Below, in pieces: positions 14,709 through 58,977 of a stretch of DNA of 64,000 bases. Source of the DNA: an uncultured Bacteroidota bacterium (GTDB lineage Bacteria > Bacteroidota > Bacteroidia > JABEUT01); assembly GCA_963767125.1 (NCBI GenBank), contig CAVYDB010000047.1, forward strand, positions 2,585 to 66,584, in the 5' to 3' direction. Numbering within the stretch: position 1 is the first letter of the stretch; every line of letters starts with the position of its first letter. Below the pieces are notes generated by a model, which saw nothing but the letters and a program-made list of their open reading frames with translations, made no database searches and had not been told where the DNA came from. Position numbers and translations under genes: made by a program.

Positions 14709-15026
14709 ATGTCTATTCATAAAAAGTGGTCAAATTACACCAGAAAAAACGCTTCCGCAGAACCTGAAAATTATGGTGTTTACGAAATTGGCGATATTGA
14801 AACTGGGGCAATTTTATATATTGGAGAAGGTAATATACGTTCAGGTTTATTAGCACATACTCCTGATGGAGGAAAGAATAAACATGTTTCAATATTCGGC
14901 ACTTCTATTGTAGGCTTATATGGTTACCGTTTTGAGGTTACTGATACCCGGGAAAAAGCTAAGCTAAGACAAAAAGAATTATTAAAGGACTTTCAAAAAG
15001 ACCTATCATTCCCTTCCTCGTTTTAA
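14709..15026 (+). CDS. Small divergent GIY-YIG-like protein
   Basis: GVY-x10-YIG motif (YGVYEIGDIETGAILYIGEG); residues at the usual catalytic Arg and Glu positions are not clearly conserved. Confidence 0.55.
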   Translation: MSIHKKWSNYTRKNASAEPENYGVYEIGDIETGAILYIGEGNIRSGLLAHTPDGGKNKHVSIFGTSIVGLYGYRFEVTDTREKAKLRQKELLKDFQKDLSFPSSF

Positions 15027-15179
15027 CCAAAAACAGGAGAAGTCAGCTACCCCGGTGTTTATATAATTGTTGCTGTTATTTTTCACTTTGTATTCTCGCT
15101 TTCTTAATTAAGTGCCATTTTGAGAAATGGCTTTCAACGTTATAGACGTTACCTATCACTTTTAGTTTTCACTGCCTTG

Positions 15180-15307
15180 TGCCCCCGCTAGGAATCCCCG
15201 TCCGAACGGGTCATCCGGGCGGGGAACATAGATCAGAAGTTCCGGAAACTTCCATACTATCCCCGCCCGACTGAATGTCGTTCGGGCAGGCGTTGTACTA
15301 TAAAGCC
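15180..15307 (-). pseudogene. tRNA-Arg(CCG) pseudo-copy with 29-nt D-loop and 27-nt T-loop hairpin insertions; additional T-stem and acceptor mismatches
   Basis: Aligns to tRNA 15940-16011 after removing the two inserts; first 10 nt overlap the end of the GIY-YIG ORF. Confidence 0.85.
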
Positions 15308-15543
15308 TTTAGTTTCTTTTGTAGAAATCTTCTTCCTGCTGCCGATTTAAAATATTTTTCGCGATTAATAGCCTCCTCCCTTGATTCAAATTCTTCTGAA
15401 TAACTTATTTTAAAGGGAATAAAGGGTTTTATTGAGGATGTCTTCCCTGAATTGTGTTCCTTTAATCTTATTTCAAGATTCTCGCAATGTCCTTTGTAAA
15501 AGTATTCATGGTTAAGGCTTTTTAAAACATACGCATAAAACAT
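15298..15543 (-). CDS. Stand-alone GIY-YIG nuclease (YhbQ/UPF0213-like), copy 2
   Basis: Y3-A-Y5, Y16-K-G18, R26 (RLKEHN), E62 (AINREKYFKS). Confidence 0.9.
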   Translation of the reverse strand: MFYAYVLKSLNHEYFYKGHCENLEIRLKEHNSGKTSSIKPFIPFKISYSEEFESREEAINREKYFKSAAGRRFLQKKLKAL

Positions 15544-15559
15544 TTTAAAGGTTTTAATG

Positions 15560-15687
15560 TGGCCCCGCTAGGAATCCCCGTCCGAACGGGTCATCCGGGC
15601 GGGGAACCTAGATCAGAAGTTCCGGAAACTTCCATACTATCCCCGCCCGACTGAATGTCGTTCGGGCAGGCGTTGTACTATAAAACC
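15560..15687 (-). pseudogene. tRNA-Arg(CCG) pseudo-copy with 29-nt D-loop and 27-nt T-loop hairpin insertions
   Basis: Identical to the intact tRNA from position 8 onward apart from the two inserts. Confidence 0.85.
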
Positions 15688-15923
15688 TTTAGTTTCTTTT
15701 GTAGAAATCTTCTTCCTGCTGCCGATTTAAAATATTTTTCGCGATTAATAGCCTCCTCCCTTGATTCAAATTCTTCTGAATAACTTATTTTAAAGGGAAT
15801 AAAGGGTTTTATTGAGGATGTCTTCCCTGAATTGTGTTCCTTTAATCTTATTTCAAGATTCTCGCAATGTCCTTTGTAAAAGTATTCATGGTTAAGGCTT
15901 TTTAAAACATAAGCATAAAACAT
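15678..15923 (-). CDS. Stand-alone GIY-YIG nuclease (YhbQ/UPF0213-like), copy 1
   Basis: 80/81 aa identical to copy 2; ATG lies 16 nt after the tRNA discriminator base. Confidence 0.9.
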   Translation of the reverse strand: MFYAYVLKSLNHEYFYKGHCENLEIRLKEHNSGKTSSIKPFIPFKISYSEEFESREEAINREKYFKSAAGRRFLQKKLKVL

Positions 15924-15939
15924 TCTAAAGATTTTAATG

Positions 15940-16011
15940 TGGCCCCGCTAGGAATCGAACCTAGATCAGAAGTTCCGGAAACTTCCATACTATCCGTTGT
16001 ACTACAGAGCC
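15940..16011 (-). tRNA. tRNA-Arg(CCG), 72 nt, CCA not encoded
   Basis: Cloverleaf folded by hand: acceptor GGCTCTG/CGGGGCC, D arm GTAC/GTAT, anticodon arm GAAGT-TTCCGGA-ACTTC, T arm CTAGG-TTCGATT-CCTAG. Confidence 0.95.
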
Positions 16012-16715
16012 AATTTTTTAAAGGATTGTAAAAATAGAAAGAATTTATAATTTTAATAAAATGACAGTAAAAAGAGTTTCGTAAACTTTCATACTATCCC
16101 CGCCCGACTGAACGTCGTTCGGGCAGGCGTTGTACTACAGAGCCAATTTTTTAAAGGATTGTAAAAATAGAAAGAATTTATAATTTTAATAAAATGACAG
16201 TAAAAAGAGTTTCGTAAACTTTCATACTATCCCCGCCCGACTGAACGTCGTTCGGGCAGGCGTTGTACTACAGAGCCAATTTTTTAAAGGATTGTAAAAA
16301 TAGAAAGAATTTATAATTTTAATAAAATGACAGTAAAAAGAGTTTCGTAAACTTTCATACTATCCCCGCCCGACTGAACGTCGTTCGGGCAGGCGTTGTA
16401 CTACAGAGCCAATTTTTTAAAGGATTGTAAAAATAGAAAGAATTTATAATTTTAATAAAATGACAGTAAAAAGAGTTTCGTAAACTTTCATACTATCCCC
16501 GCCCGACTGAACGTCGTTCGGGCAGGCGTTGTATTACAGAGCCAATTTTTTAAAGGATTGTAAAAATAGAAGGATTTTATAATTTTAATAAAATGACAGT
16601 GAAAAGAGTTTCGCAAACTTTCATACTATCCCCGCCCGACTGAACGTCGTTCGGGCAGGCGTTGTACTACAGAGCCAATTTTTTAAAGGATTGTAAAAAT
16701 AGAAAGAATTTATAA
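16012..16715 (-). repeat. Tandem array of five 133-bp units plus a 39-bp partial unit; each unit is the tRNA upstream region plus a tRNA-Arg 5' half with D-loop insert
   Basis: Unit ends (agagcc) at 16144, 16277, 16410, 16543, 16676; units 1-3 identical, five substitutions confined to 16534-16614. Confidence 0.95.
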
Positions 16716-16725
16716 GTGGATTTTT

Positions 16726-19700
16726 CTATTCTTCATCTTCAACCTCATGTAACGCAACATGCAAGTGATTATCTTTTACAAAATTGCACCATTGGCAATC
16801 TTCCTTACCGCATCCTTTACTAAATTCATGGTTTTGTATTTTTTGCCAGGTATCGGTAATTTGGTCAAGAACTATGGCAATATCTTCCTTACTTATAATT
16901 ATTTTCTCTGCTTTATATTCGTCTTTTACCGGCTCTATAAAATCAAACTCAGCACTAATGGCATCCCAATCATTATATTTCTGATTATCTAATAATATTT
17001 TATAGAATACTGCCTGTCTCCAATAATCGCCCCCAACGGTGTCATCACCAATGGGTCCTTTTAGTTTCTTTCTGGCATTATGCATATCTGCCGGTCTTAT
17101 AATCCACCACGTTTACTTTTTTACCATCAAATTCAAGCTTATCTAACTTACCATTCAGGGGCACTCCTTCAACTTCCACATTACGGATATTCTTCTCCAG
17201 AATTACAATCTTATTCCACTTTTTAATGTAAAAGTTATAATAAGGTGGCAATATTTTATCACCATATTCCAGTCTGCGGTTATATTGTTCTTTAGTAAAT
17301 GATTCTCTATTACGATACATAAACCGCCTGAAATCATCCATCATTTTCTCTTTAGATGGAAATATGTTGCCTTGAGCTTTCATCTTCTCAAACAAAGCCT
17401 GTAACGTAGAGTGTACTGCACTCCCAAATGCCATTGACTCTCCTTTGGCAGCAGGCACTCTAATTAAATTCTGATAGTAAAATTTAATCGGGCAATCCAA
17501 GTAATTATTCAGATGGGTTACACTTAAAGAATAATTTTGAAGTAAACTATCTAAATAGTTTTTATCAACCAATTCTATTTGAGGTACAGCCTTGGCAGTA
17601 TATTGTAATTCGAGGTATTTAATAAGTATGTTTTCCTCCGCCTTTTCTTCTTTTACTTCAATACTTGTTCCTTCCATAATCTCCCCTACAAAGGCAGAAC
17701 GCTCCATCCCCTTATTCTTATTTTCATTATCCTGTACCGAATATGAAATTGTAAGGTGTGTTTTAGCCCTGGTCATAGCAACATAAAAAAGCCTCCTTGC
17801 TTCTTCCAATTCATTTACCTCATATTTTTCAGAGGAGAAATTATCGGGCAATTTAAACTCATACTGGGAAGAAGATTTTTTATCATCCCAGATATTTTTA
17901 TTACAGCCAATTAAAAATACGTATTCATATTCTGTGCCCTTGGAGCCATGAGCAGTAACAAGATTAACCCCATCAGCGGTGGAAGACACTTTTACCAAAT
18001 CGAGCCGGATACGATTGTTCTGCATGGTTTCAATCATGTCGAGTAATCGTTGCAAGCTGATGGATGGGTCTTTATGGGTTTCCCCTTTTATAAAATCAAA
18101 CAGACCAGTAATAACCTGCATCAGCCAGGGCTTTTCGTCAGAATTTAAAACATAGTTCAATATTCCTGCCTCACGCACCACTTCTTCAAATAAGCCCTGT
18201 AAAGTAAGATTCGGCGAGGCTTTAATAAGGCTTTCCAATATATTACTAACTCTTTTTATTTCACTTACTTCCTCCGTACTGAATAAATCGGGCTTGGACG
18301 AACTCCCCTCTTCACTGATAGCACGGCGAATTGATGTTCTCTCATTGCGGTTACCATAGTTTTTCTGGGCGACCTGCAAGCTTAATCTTGCTATATCAAT
18401 GGCCGGAATAGTAAAGAAATCAAAATGCAAAATTTCAAATAGCATTTCATCTCCGCTATATGCCACATCTATTTCTGCGGCAATAAATTCAAGGATTTTA
18501 AGTATTTTATGAACGAATGGCAATTCCAATAAATTCACATTCCGTTTCATATTGTAGCTAATGCTCTTCTTGTCTAAGTAGCCTGATAGCTCGTCCACCT
18601 GCTTATGGTTACGGTATATAACTGCAATTTCAGAAGGGTCTATTTTGTCTTTAACAAGTAATTCTTCTATTTTATGCGCAATACATATTGTTTCATTAGA
18701 AGGATTGGGATACTCGATAATTTGGGGTAGTATTTTTAAATCCTTCACTACAGGATTGGAAGCAACTAAGTTTTTATCCTGAGACACCCTCTCTTTATTA
18801 TGCTCAATAAGGACTTTCGCAGCATCTAATACAGCCTGGGTAGAGCGATAGTTTTCTGTCAATACCACTTTGAAAAGCAGGCTGGAATACTCGTTGGCAA
18901 AACCACGAATATTTTCCACGTTCGCATCCTGAAAAGAAAATATAGATTGGTCATCATCACCCACCACAAACACATTCGGGGCATCCCAATAATGGATAAG
19001 ATGCTCGAGTAATTTCTTTTGCGAGCCGCTTGTATCCTGGAATTCATCTACCAAAAAATATAAAAACCGCTCCTGGTAATTGAGCAGAATATTATTGTTT
19101 TCTTCAAAGGCTTTCAGCACCCACAAAATCATATCATCAAAGGTGTATCGCCCTCTCTCTTGCATCATTTCATCATAGGTAGGGTACAGATTAACTGCTT
19201 CCCGCAGTTTTTCCATTCTTTCTTTTTCCTCTTTTATCCTATCTTCATTCGGCTCTCCTGCCTTATATTCCTTGTAATTTCTTTTATAAAAAAATCCATC
19301 TTTACCAGGGAGTTCTGCCAAATAAGCATCTATTCTCCCATTCAAAAATTCCAATGTCCATGCTTCTTTTTTTATCAGTGAAAAAAGATTCTTCACTTTG
19401 GGTATTTCATAATTTACTTCACCTTTAAATCTCTTTAGCAGGCTATCATTTGGAAGGTTGCTTAATAATTCCTTGAATAATTCTATTTCCTCTAACTCTG
19501 AAATAGCTTCTAAATTTTGCCTGCCGAAATAAGAGAGATTATCTTGAATCACCTCATTACAAAATGAATGAAAAGTGTGAATATTTACCCTATAAGCTGC
19601 CGGTCCTATGAGCTTGAATAGCCTGTTACGCATTTCAACCCTTCCGGTATCGGTATAAGTAAGACAAAGAATGCTATGTGGGGGAGTGTCGGTCTGCTGC

Positions 19701-40478: not shown

Positions 40479-40564
40479 CCCGCCCGAATGTCAGCCCGAA
40501 AGATTCCTGCCCCAAAGGTGAGGTTAGGCGGGCATTCTGGAGGGTACCATCCGGTACGGGCGGG
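40479..40564. repeat. Three nested GC-rich mini-hairpin elements
   Basis: Outer CCCGCCCG...CGGGCGGG perfect 8-bp stem; inner 27-nt CCTGCC...GGCGGG at 40506-40532. Confidence 0.7.
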
Positions 40565-56805: not shown

Positions 56806-58977
56806 ATGAAAAAGAATTTTATTCTCTTATTTGTATTGGTTTGTTTAGGAAGTATAGAAACTACGGCACAATATAGATATACCGTTCTGCATTATTTCAA
56901 TGATTCTGCAGGAGGCAACCCTAAAGGTGCATTAACTCTATCTAATGGAGTTTTATATGGAATGACAAGAGCCGGCGGTGCAAATCATGACGGAATAATA
57001 TTCTCTATGGATACTGCCGGTACCATCTATACCGACTTGATGGATTTCAATGGAATAAATGGCTCAAGTGCGGAAGGCTCATTAACTTTCTCCCGGAGCA
57101 CCATGTTTGGAATGACCTCTCTGGGAGGAGCCAGTGGTAAAGGTTGTATTTTCAAAATATTAACCAATGGCAGCGGATATGCTGACTTGCTTGATTTTGA
57201 TTCTGCCAATGGCGCTAACCCACAGGATAATGTTACCTTATCAGGTAATAAAATGTATGGAATGACTTTAAATGGAGGGGCACATAACTGCGGGCTTATT
57301 TTTTCGATTGATACCAATGGGGCTAATTATGTTGACCTGCTTGATTTCGACACAGCCAACGGAGCATACCCCTATGGTTCTCTAACCCTTGCAGGTAATG
57401 TATTATATGGTACGGCATCCTTAGGAGGAGACTCTGTTAACGGTTGCGTATTTTCAGTTCATATTGATGGTTCAAACTATAAAATTATGCATAGTTTTAG
57501 TGGAATACGGGGCAGCAGACCTTACGACCCTGTGGGCTCTTTACTGCTTGCCAAAAATATGTTATATGGCATGACCAGGCGAAATTATGCCCTTAATCCC
57601 TGGGGTAACAATGGTGCCATTTTTAAAATAGATACCAATGGAAATACATTTACTGAAATGGCAGATCCAAATGCACTGCCGCAGGGTTCATTCATACTGA
57701 AAGATAGCGTACTTTACAGCATGACACCAACGAATGCCGGGAGTAACTTATATCCGCACTTTGAGGCGGGAGATGTTTTCTCAATAGATACTGGTGGAGG
57801 TGGTTACGAGAGCATTCATGGTTTTATAAGACATGGATACCTGGGCGATGGAGGATGCAAGTCGCTGACACTGGCAACGAATGGATTTTATGGTATGACT
57901 ATGAATGGCGCTGACAGTACCAGTAGAATTTACACTGGTAGCGGAGTCATTTTTAAATTGGTAGATACCGGTGTTTATTATCCACAGGTAACTATGAGCA
58001 TCCACAATGTTTCATGCAACGGAGGCAGTAATGGAACAGCAATTGCCAGTGTAAGCGGTGGATTTTCTCCTTATACTTACTTCTGGCAGCCAAGTGGAAA
58101 TTCTACCGATAGTATAGGCGGGCTGAGTGCCGGAACTTATACTCTTTCTGTAACTGGAAATAATGATTCAACTACCAATGTTTATGTTACCATAACACAA
58201 CCGGCAATATTGAATCCACTAGGCTATATTATTGCCAATGTATCTTGCAATGGTGGAAATAATGGTATTGATTCTGTTTCAGGGAATGGCGGTGCATCTC
58301 CCTTTACCTATCTCTGGAACGATGCCAATAGCCAAACTACAGCCACGGCTATCGGGCTAAGTGCAGGAACTTATACAGTTAGTGTTTCTGATTCTTGCGG
58401 TAATTCTGCCACAACATCTGTTATAATAACACAACCAATAGCCCTGACTATGATGGCAGATTCATCTGACGCCACATCCGGAAATTGTGATGGTTCCGCA
58501 TGGGTTATAGTCAATGGAGGCACAACCCCCTATACCTATTCATGGACGGGAGGACTTACTACCGATACCATATTAAACCAGTGTACCGGAGATTATTGCT
58601 GCACAATTGCTGACGTTAACGGATGCATAGATAGTATTTGTGTAAATATTGATGTTTCGACCGGAACCAATCAGTTAGAAGGGGAAAGTGAAAAGGTAAA
58701 AGTTTATCCAAACCCGAATGATGGTCTTTTTACAATTACGCTCGGTCATGCCGAACTTGCCCGCCCGGATGAATCGGTCGGACGGGTTTCGGCATCCCAA
58801 CCTATTGTAAGGATATTTAATGTATTGGGGCAGCAGGTATATTTTGCGACCCTGAAACAAGTTCTGGGTGACAATTTCATTGATATTTCGTCTCAGCCTG
58901 ACGGGGTTTATTTTTATAGAGTATTAAGTGAAACTGGAGGATTAATAGGAGAAGGAAAGCTGGTGATAGTGAAATAA
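56806..58977 (+). CDS. T9SS-secreted protein with tandem G..P.G.L...LYGMT..GG beta-propeller repeats (TIGR03803/GloVer-like) and SprB-like repeats (start moved from 56725)
   Basis: Signal MKKNFILLF preceded by TAATTTTG (56781-56788); VSCNGG..G...GG..PYTY.W repeats; VYPNPN...GVYFYRV...GKLVIVK. Confidence 0.85.
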   Translation: MKKNFILLFVLVCLGSIETTAQYRYTVLHYFNDSAGGNPKGALTLSNGVLYGMTRAGGANHDGIIFSMDTAGTIYTDLMDFNGINGSSAEGSLTFSRSTMFGMTSLGGASGKGCIFKILTNGSGYADLLDFDSANGANPQDNVTLSGNKMYGMTLNGGAHNCGLIFSIDTNGANYVDLLDFDTANGAYPYGSLTLAGNVLYGTASLGGDSVNGCVFSVHIDGSNYKIMHSFSGIRGSRPYDPVGSLLLAKNMLYGMTRRNYALNPWGNNGAIFKIDTNGNTFTEMADPNALPQGSFILKDSVLYSMTPTNAGSNLYPHFEAGDVFSIDTGGGGYESIHGFIRHGYLGDGGCKSLTLATNGFYGMTMNGADSTSRIYTGSGVIFKLVDTGVYYPQVTMSIHNVSCNGGSNGTAIASVSGGFSPYTYFWQPSGNSTDSIGGLSAGTYTLSVTGNNDSTTNVYVTITQPAILNPLGYIIANVSCNGGNNGIDSVSGNGGASPFTYLWNDANSQTTATAIGLSAGTYTVSVSDSCGNSATTSVIITQPIALTMMADSSDATSGNCDGSAWVIVNGGTTPYTYSWTGGLTTDTILNQCTGDYCCTIADVNGCIDSICVNIDVSTGTNQLEGESEKVKVYPNPNDGLFTITLGHAELARPDESVGRVSASQPIVRIFNVLGQQVYFATLKQVLGDNFIDISSQPDGVYFYRVLSETGGLIGEGKLVIVK
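58745..58796 (+). repeat. REP-like palindrome GTCATGCCGAACTTG|TTTCGGCATC carrying a 27-nt hairpin insert (58760-58786), translated in frame
   Basis: Insert is 24/27 identical to the tRNA T-loop insert. Confidence 0.8.

Follow-up and report, generated by a model that had tools for sequence, protein, structure and literature searches.

A tRNA-Arg gene that stands beside seven defective copies of itself, each split by a hairpin at the tRNA elbow, raises the question of how the hairpins came to lie there and what keeps them in place. The locus is found in a 64,000-nucleotide (nt) stretch of DNA, hereafter the window, from an uncultured Bacteroidota bacterium (GCA_963767125.1, contig CAVYDB010000047.1, positions 2,585–66,584), whose draft genome (G000) comprises 3.55 Mb with 39.9% G+C. 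An earlier interpretation made from the letters of the window (the sequence-only reading) had presented the hairpins as possible silencers of extra tRNA copies or as a mobile element, and had missed the D-loop hairpin as a conserved companion of a GIY-YIG nuclease gene across the phylum. The hairpins are probably the cognate repeats and junction marks of a small GIY-YIG cassette on tRNA-Arg, and the additional hairpin in the T loop probably represents a secondary hit by a dispersed derivative.

Hairpin-split copies and a nuclease gene at tRNA-Arg

All features of the tRNA-Arg locus lie on the minus strand of the window (Table 1). In minus-strand order, the end of a helicase gene, which encodes a UvrD-like protein with a C-terminus of the PD-(D/E)XK nuclease type, is followed by 5.4 units of 133 nt, the intact tRNA-Arg(CCG) and two units of 380 nt. 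Each 133-nt unit contains ∼39 nt of promoter-like sequence identical to that directly upstream of the intact tRNA, tRNA nt 1–17, a 29-nt hairpin (hairpin A), decayed nt 18–45 and a 23-nt junction; its sequence reads tRNA nt 1–17, then CCTGCCCGAACGACGTTCAGTCGGGCGGG, then GATAGTATGAAAGTTT(A/G)CGAAACTC. The anticodon of the array halves is ACG or GCG. These anticodons look like decay products of CCG, judging from the sequences; an origin from tRNA-Arg(ACG) was rejected because the real ACG tRNA (C49:358946-359020) is unrelated in sequence. The downstream array (2.0 units, 98% identity) is built from an open reading frame (ORF) of 81 amino acids (aa), tRNA nt 8–17, hairpin A', nt 18–55, CCCGCCCGGATGACCCGTTCGGACGGG (hairpin B) and nt 56–72. 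The proximal ORF starts 15 nt past the intact tRNA, and its TAG stop codon coincides with nt 8–10 of the next tRNA copy. In this proximal split copy, nt 1–7 are changed to GGTTTTA ahead of nt 8–17, A', nt 18–55, B and nt 56–72. The distal split copy has decayed further: T replaces G in the T stem, and G replaces C in the acceptor strand at the 3' side. The acceptor stems of the split copies are mispaired or wobble-rich (GGTTTTA), and neither ARAGORN nor Rfam calls a tRNA in any hairpin-bearing copy; Rfam finds no second tRNA in 15100–16800 even at E ≤ 1. The split copies of the window are pseudogenes, not functional tRNAs.

The insertion points described by the sequence-only reading were reproduced. 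The 29-nt hairpin occupies G18/G19 in seven of seven defective copies, the 27-nt hairpin B occupies C56/G57 in both full-length pseudo-copies, and the intact tRNA carries neither. Target duplication is absent, and the 3' flank is GAT for A and B alike. Aligned to the intact gene, A lies at AACG^GATA (G18^G19; ^ marks the insertion point), with a boundary that can be shifted by one G, and B lies at the unambiguous boundary GTTC^GATT (C56^G57). Hairpin A' differs from A by a single G-to-A change. RNAfold energies are −16.8 kcal/mol for A and −14.4 kcal/mol for B. The fold of B comprises 11 pairs, one C·A mismatch and a three-base loop, a longer stem than had been stated before.

Hairpin A has no match in the rest of the 3.55-Mb genome or in the 17 other genomes of the genus. 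When the most frequent cassette hairpin, CCCGCCCGGCTGAACGCCGTTCGGACGGG, is reverse-complemented, it agrees with A at 25 of 29 positions (18 of 29 in direct orientation); the hairpin that an unrelated Chitinophaga genome carries in the D-loop agrees with A at 27 of 29. By these matches, A is the usual cassette hairpin in inverted form. They replace the idea that A is a locally diverged or inverted copy of B. Hairpin B corresponds to the 29-nt cassette form less two loop bases.

The 81-aa ORF encodes a bare GIY-YIG domain (PF01541, residues 1–70, E = 4.2e-13) without other domains. More than 1000 close homologues exist, mostly in Chitinophagaceae and Sphingobacteriales, and PADLOC and NCBIfam return nothing for the ORF. 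Its product is 78–79% identical to proteins from unrelated metagenomes and 71% identical to the copy in another member of the genus (G009). Distant paralogues within the genus reside beside copies of tRNA-Ala, tRNA-Glu, tRNA-Asn and tRNA-Asp that are also broken by small palindromes; a paralogue beside tRNA-Ser has no broken copy within the stretch read.

A survey of 80 species-level loci of ORF homologues shows that the association extends across the phylum. An intact tRNA-Arg on the same strand as the ORF is present in 72 of the 80 loci (CCT 42, CCG 20, TCG 9, ACG 1). At least 53 loci have a second copy interrupted by an insert, which lies in the D-loop in 49 of them; the counts of split copies are lower bounds because a split copy was scored only from two BLAST fragments. 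Among 87 junctions (some of them tandem duplicates in one locus), 69 fall in the D-loop: 42 at 17|18 (G18^G19), 16 at 21|22 and 11 at 22|23, the latter two at the D-loop end and representing the Pedobacter and Flavobacterium types. The other junctions are found at the border of the variable loop and T stem (10), at C56^G57 (3), in the anticodon stem (3), beside the anticodon loop (1) and in the variable loop (1). ARAGORN detects a second tRNA beside the ORF in one locus only, and this is a hairpin-bearing copy; thus, no locus contains two intact copies. Ten contexts obtained by exact protein look-up agree, since each ORF adjoins a tRNA-Arg (seven CCG, two CCT and one CCG further upstream) and the following second copy, where present, is broken by GC hairpins. 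Cultured carriers in the survey include Pedobacter sp. KLB.chiD, Algoriphagus locisalis DSM 23445 and Agriterribacter humi YJ03.

The surveyed loci adopt two arrangements. In the first, the intact tRNA is followed by the ORF and then by [1–17][hairpin][18–73]. In the second, [1–17][hairpin][18–about 30 to 55] precedes the ORF, which is followed by the intact tRNA. The ORF runs into tRNA nt 1–10, with its stop codon in nt 8–10, in each locus read. The hairpin flanks the ORF on both sides in the window, where A is found upstream (five copies) and downstream (one per ORF), and likewise in most of the 80 loci. The D-loop hairpins are GC-rich, 20–36 nt long and, in most lineages, located at AAYG^GATA. 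One 28-nt hairpin recurs unchanged in six loci and one 29-nt hairpin in eight, and the ORFs of these loci are ∼69% identical in DNA (median). On this sequence evidence, the cassette hairpin is constrained and travels with the cassette. Arrays of the ORF also occur elsewhere (three ORFs in L125; L188). Next to this nuclease gene, two loci exhibit tRNA-fragment arrays of another type, consisting of only the last 16 nt of the tRNA (nt 58–73) at ∼46–48-nt spacing (L122, ENA scaffold_18, 906-921 and 1375-1482; L201, 1075-1186).

Thirteen members of the genus have the tRNA directly behind the same helicase gene, and in eight of them it is a single clean copy. The cassette is patchy on the genus tree: it is present at tRNA-Arg(CCG) in G000, G009 and G017 and absent from the eight members with the same helicase gene. 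G009 has a partial copy upstream and, after the ORF, a full copy downstream, both with the consensus 27-nt hairpin at AACG^GATA and without a T-loop insert. G017 has the order intact tRNA, ORF and copy with a 29-nt hairpin at G18^G19. Two other members, G016 and G002, carry an upstream half copy with a hairpin at G18^G19. The 29-nt hairpin is identical in G016 and G017, is found only in the tRNA and occurs nowhere else in the genus; the helicase genes of these two genomes are ∼1.1 substitutions per site apart. Assemblies break at this locus, and the contig ends of several relatives fall inside it.

Table 1. Coordinates of the tRNA-Arg locus features and of a dispersed hairpin copy in the window
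Feature	Position	Strand	Basis or remark
Intact tRNA-Arg(CCG), insert-free, sole functional copy	15939..16011	-	ARAGORN; Rfam RF00005, 58.6 bits
Upstream array, 5.4 units of 133 nt, 98% identity	16012..16715	-	TRF, sequence reading
Hairpin A, 29 nt, array unit 5, G18^G19	16099..16127	-	Pattern match
Hairpin A, identical array copies	16232-16260, 16365-16393, 16498-16526, 16631-16659	-	Pattern match
GIY-YIG nuclease ORF, proximal copy, 81 aa	15678..15923	-	ORF list; Pfam PF01541
GIY-YIG ORF, distal copy, 81 aa, one residue unlike proximal	15298..15543	-	ORF list
Proximal hairpin-split tRNA copy	15560..15687	-	Sequence reading
Distal hairpin-split tRNA copy	15180..15307	-	Sequence reading
Hairpin A', D-loop, proximal copy	15642..15670	-	Pattern match
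Hairpin A', D-loop, distal twin	15262-15290	-	Pattern match
Hairpin B, 27 nt, C56^G57, proximal copy	15577..15603	-	Pattern match
Hairpin B, 27 nt, C56^G57, distal twin	15197-15223	-	Pattern match
B-family copy, in frame (ARPDESVGR), type IX secretion system (T9SS) sorting domain	58760..58786	+	Sits in palindrome loop CCGAACTTG^TTTCGG

The surroundings of the locus have features of their own. The helicase/nuclease gene upstream of the array is cut into ORFs of 928 and 119 aa by one extra C (window 17074-17104, minus strand), with TATGCATAATGCC in the window corresponding to TATGATAATGCC in relatives, a +1 frameshift that could reflect a real pseudogene or an assembly error beside the repeat. 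A 105-aa ORF (window 14709-15026, plus strand; Pfam DUF7508, E = 6.6e-12) converges on the distal tRNA copy. By eye, its N-terminus (YGVYEIGD...ILYIGEG) resembles a GIY-YIG domain; if so, the locus would be adjoined by another small gene of nuclease-like type. Elsewhere in the genome, ARAGORN reports a 'tRNA-Stop (tta)' right after tRNA-Ile and tRNA-Ala (C31:49064-49141); the call could be spurious, from the spacer of an rRNA operon, or could represent a suppressor-like tRNA.

Dispersed copies of hairpin B and their insertion sites

Hairpin B belongs to a dispersed family with the consensus CCCGCCCGGATGAAYCGKTCGGACGGG, of which 41 copies are detected in G000 by nhmmer at E < 0.3. Copies across the genus were counted by pattern, and the reversed pattern used as a control gave no match in 61 genomes. 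The family is limited to one clade of the genus, which also holds the cassettes (35, 18, 16, 11, 10, 3 and 2 copies); other genomes contain none or one. Among 301 genomes from across the class, 19 contain the arm pattern, usually once or twice, and it is expanded in few lineages.

Approximately 20 or more copies of B reside in long ORFs, mostly in one frame, and encode the peptide ARPDESFGR or, inverted, ARPNGSSGR. The host genes include those for an ornithine aminotransferase, a thiolase, a 553-aa peptidase-like protein, an enoyl-CoA hydratase (identified by eye) and many T9SS sorting domains. In-frame copies in housekeeping-type genes (C11:128908, C7:173382, C17:72985, C9:10639, C44:80631 and C38:36640) add nine residues, usually within or beside a Gly codon. 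The divisibility of 27 nt by three may be why the B form could spread into coding regions. Each in-frame copy also adds one CGG codon, which is read by the tRNA-Arg(CCG) of the window; codon demand as a link between the two was set aside, as the ∼20–25 added codons seem too few.

Empty sites establish that the hairpin moves. In the ornithine aminotransferase gene (C11:128908), B is an exact gain of 27 nt in G000 and is absent from 12 relatives, some of which carry B elsewhere. The insertion site is AAT^GGG, where at most the G run is shared. The dispersed copies and the empty sites in relatives indicate that the hairpin moves as DNA, and the sequence-only reading was right to regard the inserts as mobile hairpin DNA.

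Empty sites were rebuilt for 98 B copies from G000 and five relatives and were collapsed by flank similarity to 53 site classes. In 50 of the 53 classes, a G immediately precedes the insert; T and A are favored at −2 and −3. Compared with AAT^GATA, the flanks of B match at 3.04 of 7 positions versus 2.10 in controls (z = 5.7; 0 of 2000 resamples). The dispersed B sites thus resemble the tRNA D-loop site AATG^GATA, and the feature common to them is sequence.

The genome also contains other palindromes into which hairpins are nested. A second family, (GT)CATGCTGAACTTGTTTCAGCAT(CC), has 27 or more empty copies, many in T9SS C-terminal sorting domains (C3:45915, C14:126223, C32:14520 and window 58751-58795), and contains B in 11 copies at CTTG^TTTC. 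A nested GC-hairpin composite, with the outer arms CCCGCCCGAATG...TACGGGCGGG and inner units, is found at window 40479-40564, C7:150025, C7:156289, C8:16417, C20:114422 and C29:24141. Either this composite spreads or the nesting recurs.

A proposed cassette and its alternatives

In the explanation that we consider probable, the nuclease gene, the hairpins and the tRNA pieces would together make up a small cassette residing on tRNA-Arg genes across Bacteroidota. A unit of the form [hairpin][tRNA 18–73 or part][ORF][tRNA 1–17] would be placed at bond 17|18 of a clean tRNA, an event that would rebuild one whole tRNA and leave one split copy. Opening of the unit on either side of the hairpin would yield both arrangements seen in the survey. 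Repeated events on the rebuilt tRNA, or unequal crossing-over, would generate tandem arrays, such as the five ORF-less units and two ORF units observed here. For the enzymatic steps, we infer from the analogy with SsnA, a small GIY-YIG nuclease discussed below, that the nuclease would bind the hairpin as single-stranded DNA (ssDNA) and cut a few bases 5' of it. Repair of the break templated on the hairpin-bearing copy would then install either the hairpin alone or the whole cassette at sites resembling ATG^GAT. Hairpin B would derive from the 29-nt form by loss of 2 nt and would have spread, as a 27-nt element, to ∼40 sites in the clade, and the T-loop copy would be a secondary hit beside GAT in an already dead tRNA copy. 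In this scheme, the loss of the elbow is a consequence of the cassette junction site, not its purpose.

A stronger version of this proposal regards the mini GIY-YIG nuclease and its hairpin as a self-mobilizing element of an undescribed kind, which would combine ssDNA hairpin recognition, tRNA-rebuilding homing to the D-loop and a bare hairpin as the non-autonomous form. We put this version forward tentatively, with less than even confidence. The cassette would home to the tRNA-Arg D-loop at AATG^GATA and rebuild the tRNA, so that the target would never be lost, which would explain the tandem arrays. In housekeeping protein genes, the bare hairpin would give rise to in-frame insertions of exactly 27 nt where the sequence resembles the D-loop site.

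Several observations weigh against the cassette explanation. Unequal crossing-over alone can yield tandem arrays, and the arrays are thus no proof of repeated insertion. The intact and presumably still targetable tRNA beside the nuclease gene is left unexplained by a simple homing model. No close ORF was found in G002 and G016 despite their many B copies and hairpin-bearing half copy, and the ORF was either lost from these genomes or is not needed. The T-loop site of B is the sole class of the 53 with a C before the insert, and secondary sites in other lineages vary among the anticodon stem, T stem and variable loop. By sequence, the solved structures closest to the ORF product are the UPF0213 proteins 1ywl and 1zg2, with weak matches (E = 7e-5 and 1e-3); they place it in the Slx1-like standalone lineage (PMC1564403).

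The alternative that survives best, although we regard it as unlikely, holds that the pattern arises mainly from selection to disable the spare copy, such that any elbow-breaking hairpin would be kept after duplication. The benefit could be a block to RNase P or the ribosome, a shortening of the tRNA/tRNA homology that would otherwise allow deletion of the ORF, or destruction of the nuclease site in the distal copy. The functional copy is indeed never hit, no locus retains two intact copies, and the inserts cut the 72-nt homology into 17, 38 and 17 nt in the full-length spare copies of the window. Secondary inserts elsewhere in the tRNA (T loop, T stem, anticodon stem and variable loop) in other lineages also speak for it. 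The predicted minimum free energy (MFE) fold of a copy with a single D-loop insert is a cloverleaf with one extra hairpin at the elbow, as the sequence-only reading had envisaged for all inserts. In the double-insert copies, this picture is only half true: A is complementary to B, and two folds share the predicted ensemble ∼50:50, one a cloverleaf bearing both hairpins and the other a duplex of A with B that abolishes the D and T arms.

Disabling does not account for the pattern as a whole. In 31 loci with an upstream copy only, copies already dead through truncation (nt 1–17, hairpin, nt 18–30) still have the hairpin at this bond, so silencing alone is no full explanation. In line with the sequence-only reading, ARAGORN and Rfam do not recognize the split copies as tRNAs. 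Random inactivation predicts point mutations and deletions, and instead the D-loop is split in 49 of the 53 loci with a detectable second copy. Disruption also needs no identity of the hairpin, including its loop, between loci with ∼69% identical ORFs. The RNase P version fails where the ORF stop codon falls within the intact, processed tRNA (distance-0 loci). The related idea that the hairpin shields the stop codon from RNase P cleavage of an overlapping tRNA copy was rejected, as the stop codon lies inside the intact processed tRNA in many loci.

It is quite improbable that the split copy works as RNA, either through intron-like removal of the insert or as a decoy or antitoxin for a nuclease acting on tRNA-Arg at G18/G19, in which case the upstream array would resemble the repeat arrays of type III toxin-antitoxin systems. 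Such a role would fit the full-length downstream copies that in many loci retain 98–100% identity with the intact tRNA apart from the insert, the strong conservation of the hairpin and the recurrence of arrays of hairpin-bearing halves upstream of the ORF. However, an intact tRNA-Arg is present in every locus with a scored split copy, and many split copies are truncated or mispaired in the acceptor stem, as with GGTTTTA here. These two points also bear out the earlier judgment that intron-like removal is unlikely. The loci do not have the features of tRNA introns: they always contain a gene free of interruption, the inserted 27–29-nt hairpin is simple and has no self-splicing core, and Rfam reports no intron family. 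To our knowledge, no bacterial enzyme splices archaeal-type tRNA introns. The dispersed DNA copies and the empty sites reveal movement at the DNA level, and SsnA is inactive on RNA (PMC11893778).

Structure-directed insertion, in which a hairpin element recognizes loops of folded ssDNA or RNA and the tRNA D and T loops are simply good loops, is highly improbable. It is suggested by the B copies that occupy the loop of the second palindrome, CTGAACTTG^TTTCAG, in 11 copies of G000 (27 copies are empty), and by nested hairpins at 40479-40564 and C31:68048. MFE folding of the empty sites placed only five of the 53 site classes in a predicted hairpin loop (stem ≥4 bp), compared with 15.2% of 3000 control sites located after a G. 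Loop targeting was accordingly rejected as a general rule. Counting of flanking stems is unsuited to this comparison because its background is too high, with stems of ≥4 bp at 42% of random sites. The sequence-only reading, which had proposed loop targeting, had itself taken an absence of loop bias as grounds for abandoning it. No flanking stem is found at the aminotransferase, thiolase, hydratase or peptidase insertions, and the 11 loop-embedded copies share one B subtype and may be a single composite that spread.

A chance landing of generic hairpins resembling repetitive extragenic palindromes (REPs) in unselected dead copies, with the elbow positions as a post-hoc coincidence, is equally implausible: the genome is rich in GC-hairpin families, some of them nested, and B is found in many unrelated places, but A occurs at this locus only, ∼41 B copies per 3.55 Mb correspond to roughly 1 in 1000 for a given 73-nt stretch, other hairpin sequences occupy the same bonds in other genera (G18^G19 in L118, L124, L125 and many others; C56^G57 also in L115, L120, L123 and L170), and the 80-locus survey contradicts it.

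Relation to known systems and significance

The closest described system is the Ssn family, to which the cassette is likened from sequence and layout. SsnA of Neisseria meningitidis is a 94-aa single-domain GIY-YIG protein that binds the 28-nt hairpin of its NTS repeat only as ssDNA and cleaves just upstream of it, without cutting double-stranded DNA (dsDNA) or RNA (PMC11893778). Three bases before the palindrome govern cleavage, and the repeat flanks the gene, is dispersed and is expanded in some genomes; the authors remarked that the order repeat, gene, repeat resembles an insertion sequence (PMC11893778). The family was described as abundant in Pseudomonadati (PMC11893778). The cassette shares with it a single-domain GIY-YIG protein of 80–95 aa (the 81-aa ORF lies within the family limit of < ∼150 aa), a hairpin repeat of 20–50 nt on the 5' and 3' sides of the gene, an oriented repeat in which a few bases upstream of the palindrome matter, and a dispersal that is greatly expanded in some lineages. 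The cassette differs in that its hairpins are embedded at an exact tRNA-Arg bond with an intact tRNA kept, whereas the text of the Ssn paper does not contain the word tRNA (PMC11893778). Moreover, its dispersed copies are exactly 27 nt long and often in frame in protein genes, and its host phylum is Bacteroidota.

Resemblance to SegB, a free-standing GIY-YIG nuclease of phages T4 and T6, lies in the position of the gene among tRNA genes and in its patchy presence (PMC2330249). Tandem (segmental) amplification of the tRNA region is linked to the nuclease (PMC13096335). SegB is not known to have a hairpin repeat, split tRNA copy or rebuilt tRNA, and the cassette protein is a bare catalytic domain of ∼70 residues from the Slx1/UPF0213 lineage in which a homing-type DNA-binding region was not found. 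SegB is reportedly a larger protein with a DNA-binding part that cuts dsDNA in cassette-free phage genomes.

The REP/REPIN-RAYT and IS200/IS605 systems also move short palindromes as ssDNA hairpins without target duplication, insert them beside a short specific sequence and have non-autonomous hairpins that outnumber the enzyme gene. Their enzyme, however, is a Y1 HUH transposase and their repeats are extragenic, whereas ∼20 or more copies of B lie in ORFs. A RAYT/Y1 transposase was rejected as the mobilizer of B: such genes are flanked by other palindromes and are found in 17 of 18 genomes of the genus whether B is present or not. In G000, the palindromes flanking the three PF01797 (Y1) genes are of the CTCCGTAGGAG-, CCCACGATTTAAATCGTGGG- and ACCCTGCGC-type, neither A nor B. 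With palindromes of their own, these genes (C3:26948-27292, C13:53648-53992 and C1:32779-33117) constitute separate REP-like systems.

Rickettsia palindromic elements (RPEs) are likewise palindromic selfish DNA in frame in coding genes, encode a hydrophilic peptide and let the host gene survive; they are said to insert in RNA genes as well. RPEs are ∼100–150 bp long, belong to another phylum and have no known associated nuclease gene, whereas B is 27 nt (nine codons), is tied to a nuclease cassette and forms another sequence family. In tRNA-targeting integrative elements, the target is similarly rebuilt from an element-borne piece, and a partial or disabled copy remains at the other junction. 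Such elements span kilobases and rely on a tyrosine or serine recombinase, and their crossover usually falls toward the 3' side of the tRNA. The cassette, in contrast, is a unit of ∼130–380 nt with a hairpin-bearing D-loop junction and no recombinase.

Literature searches found no description of a tRNA-Arg GIY-YIG hairpin cassette. What the cassette likely adds to the Ssn picture is its placement at an exact bond of tRNA-Arg, a target that is rebuilt, and 27-nt derivatives that lie in frame at sites resembling the D-loop. Across the phylum, a nuclease gene of ∼80 aa, a hairpin of ∼28 nt and pieces of tRNA-Arg travel together, mostly at the same D-loop bond. If the nuclease is Ssn-like, the cassette would provide a second natural setting for this family, with a precise genomic target, and evidence that Ssn hairpins move. 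For annotation, the nine-residue ARPDESFGR and ARPNGSSGR inserts in enzymes could pass for lineage-specific loops. For evolution, the family offers a small-scale bacterial parallel to palindromic elements that live in genes without killing them.

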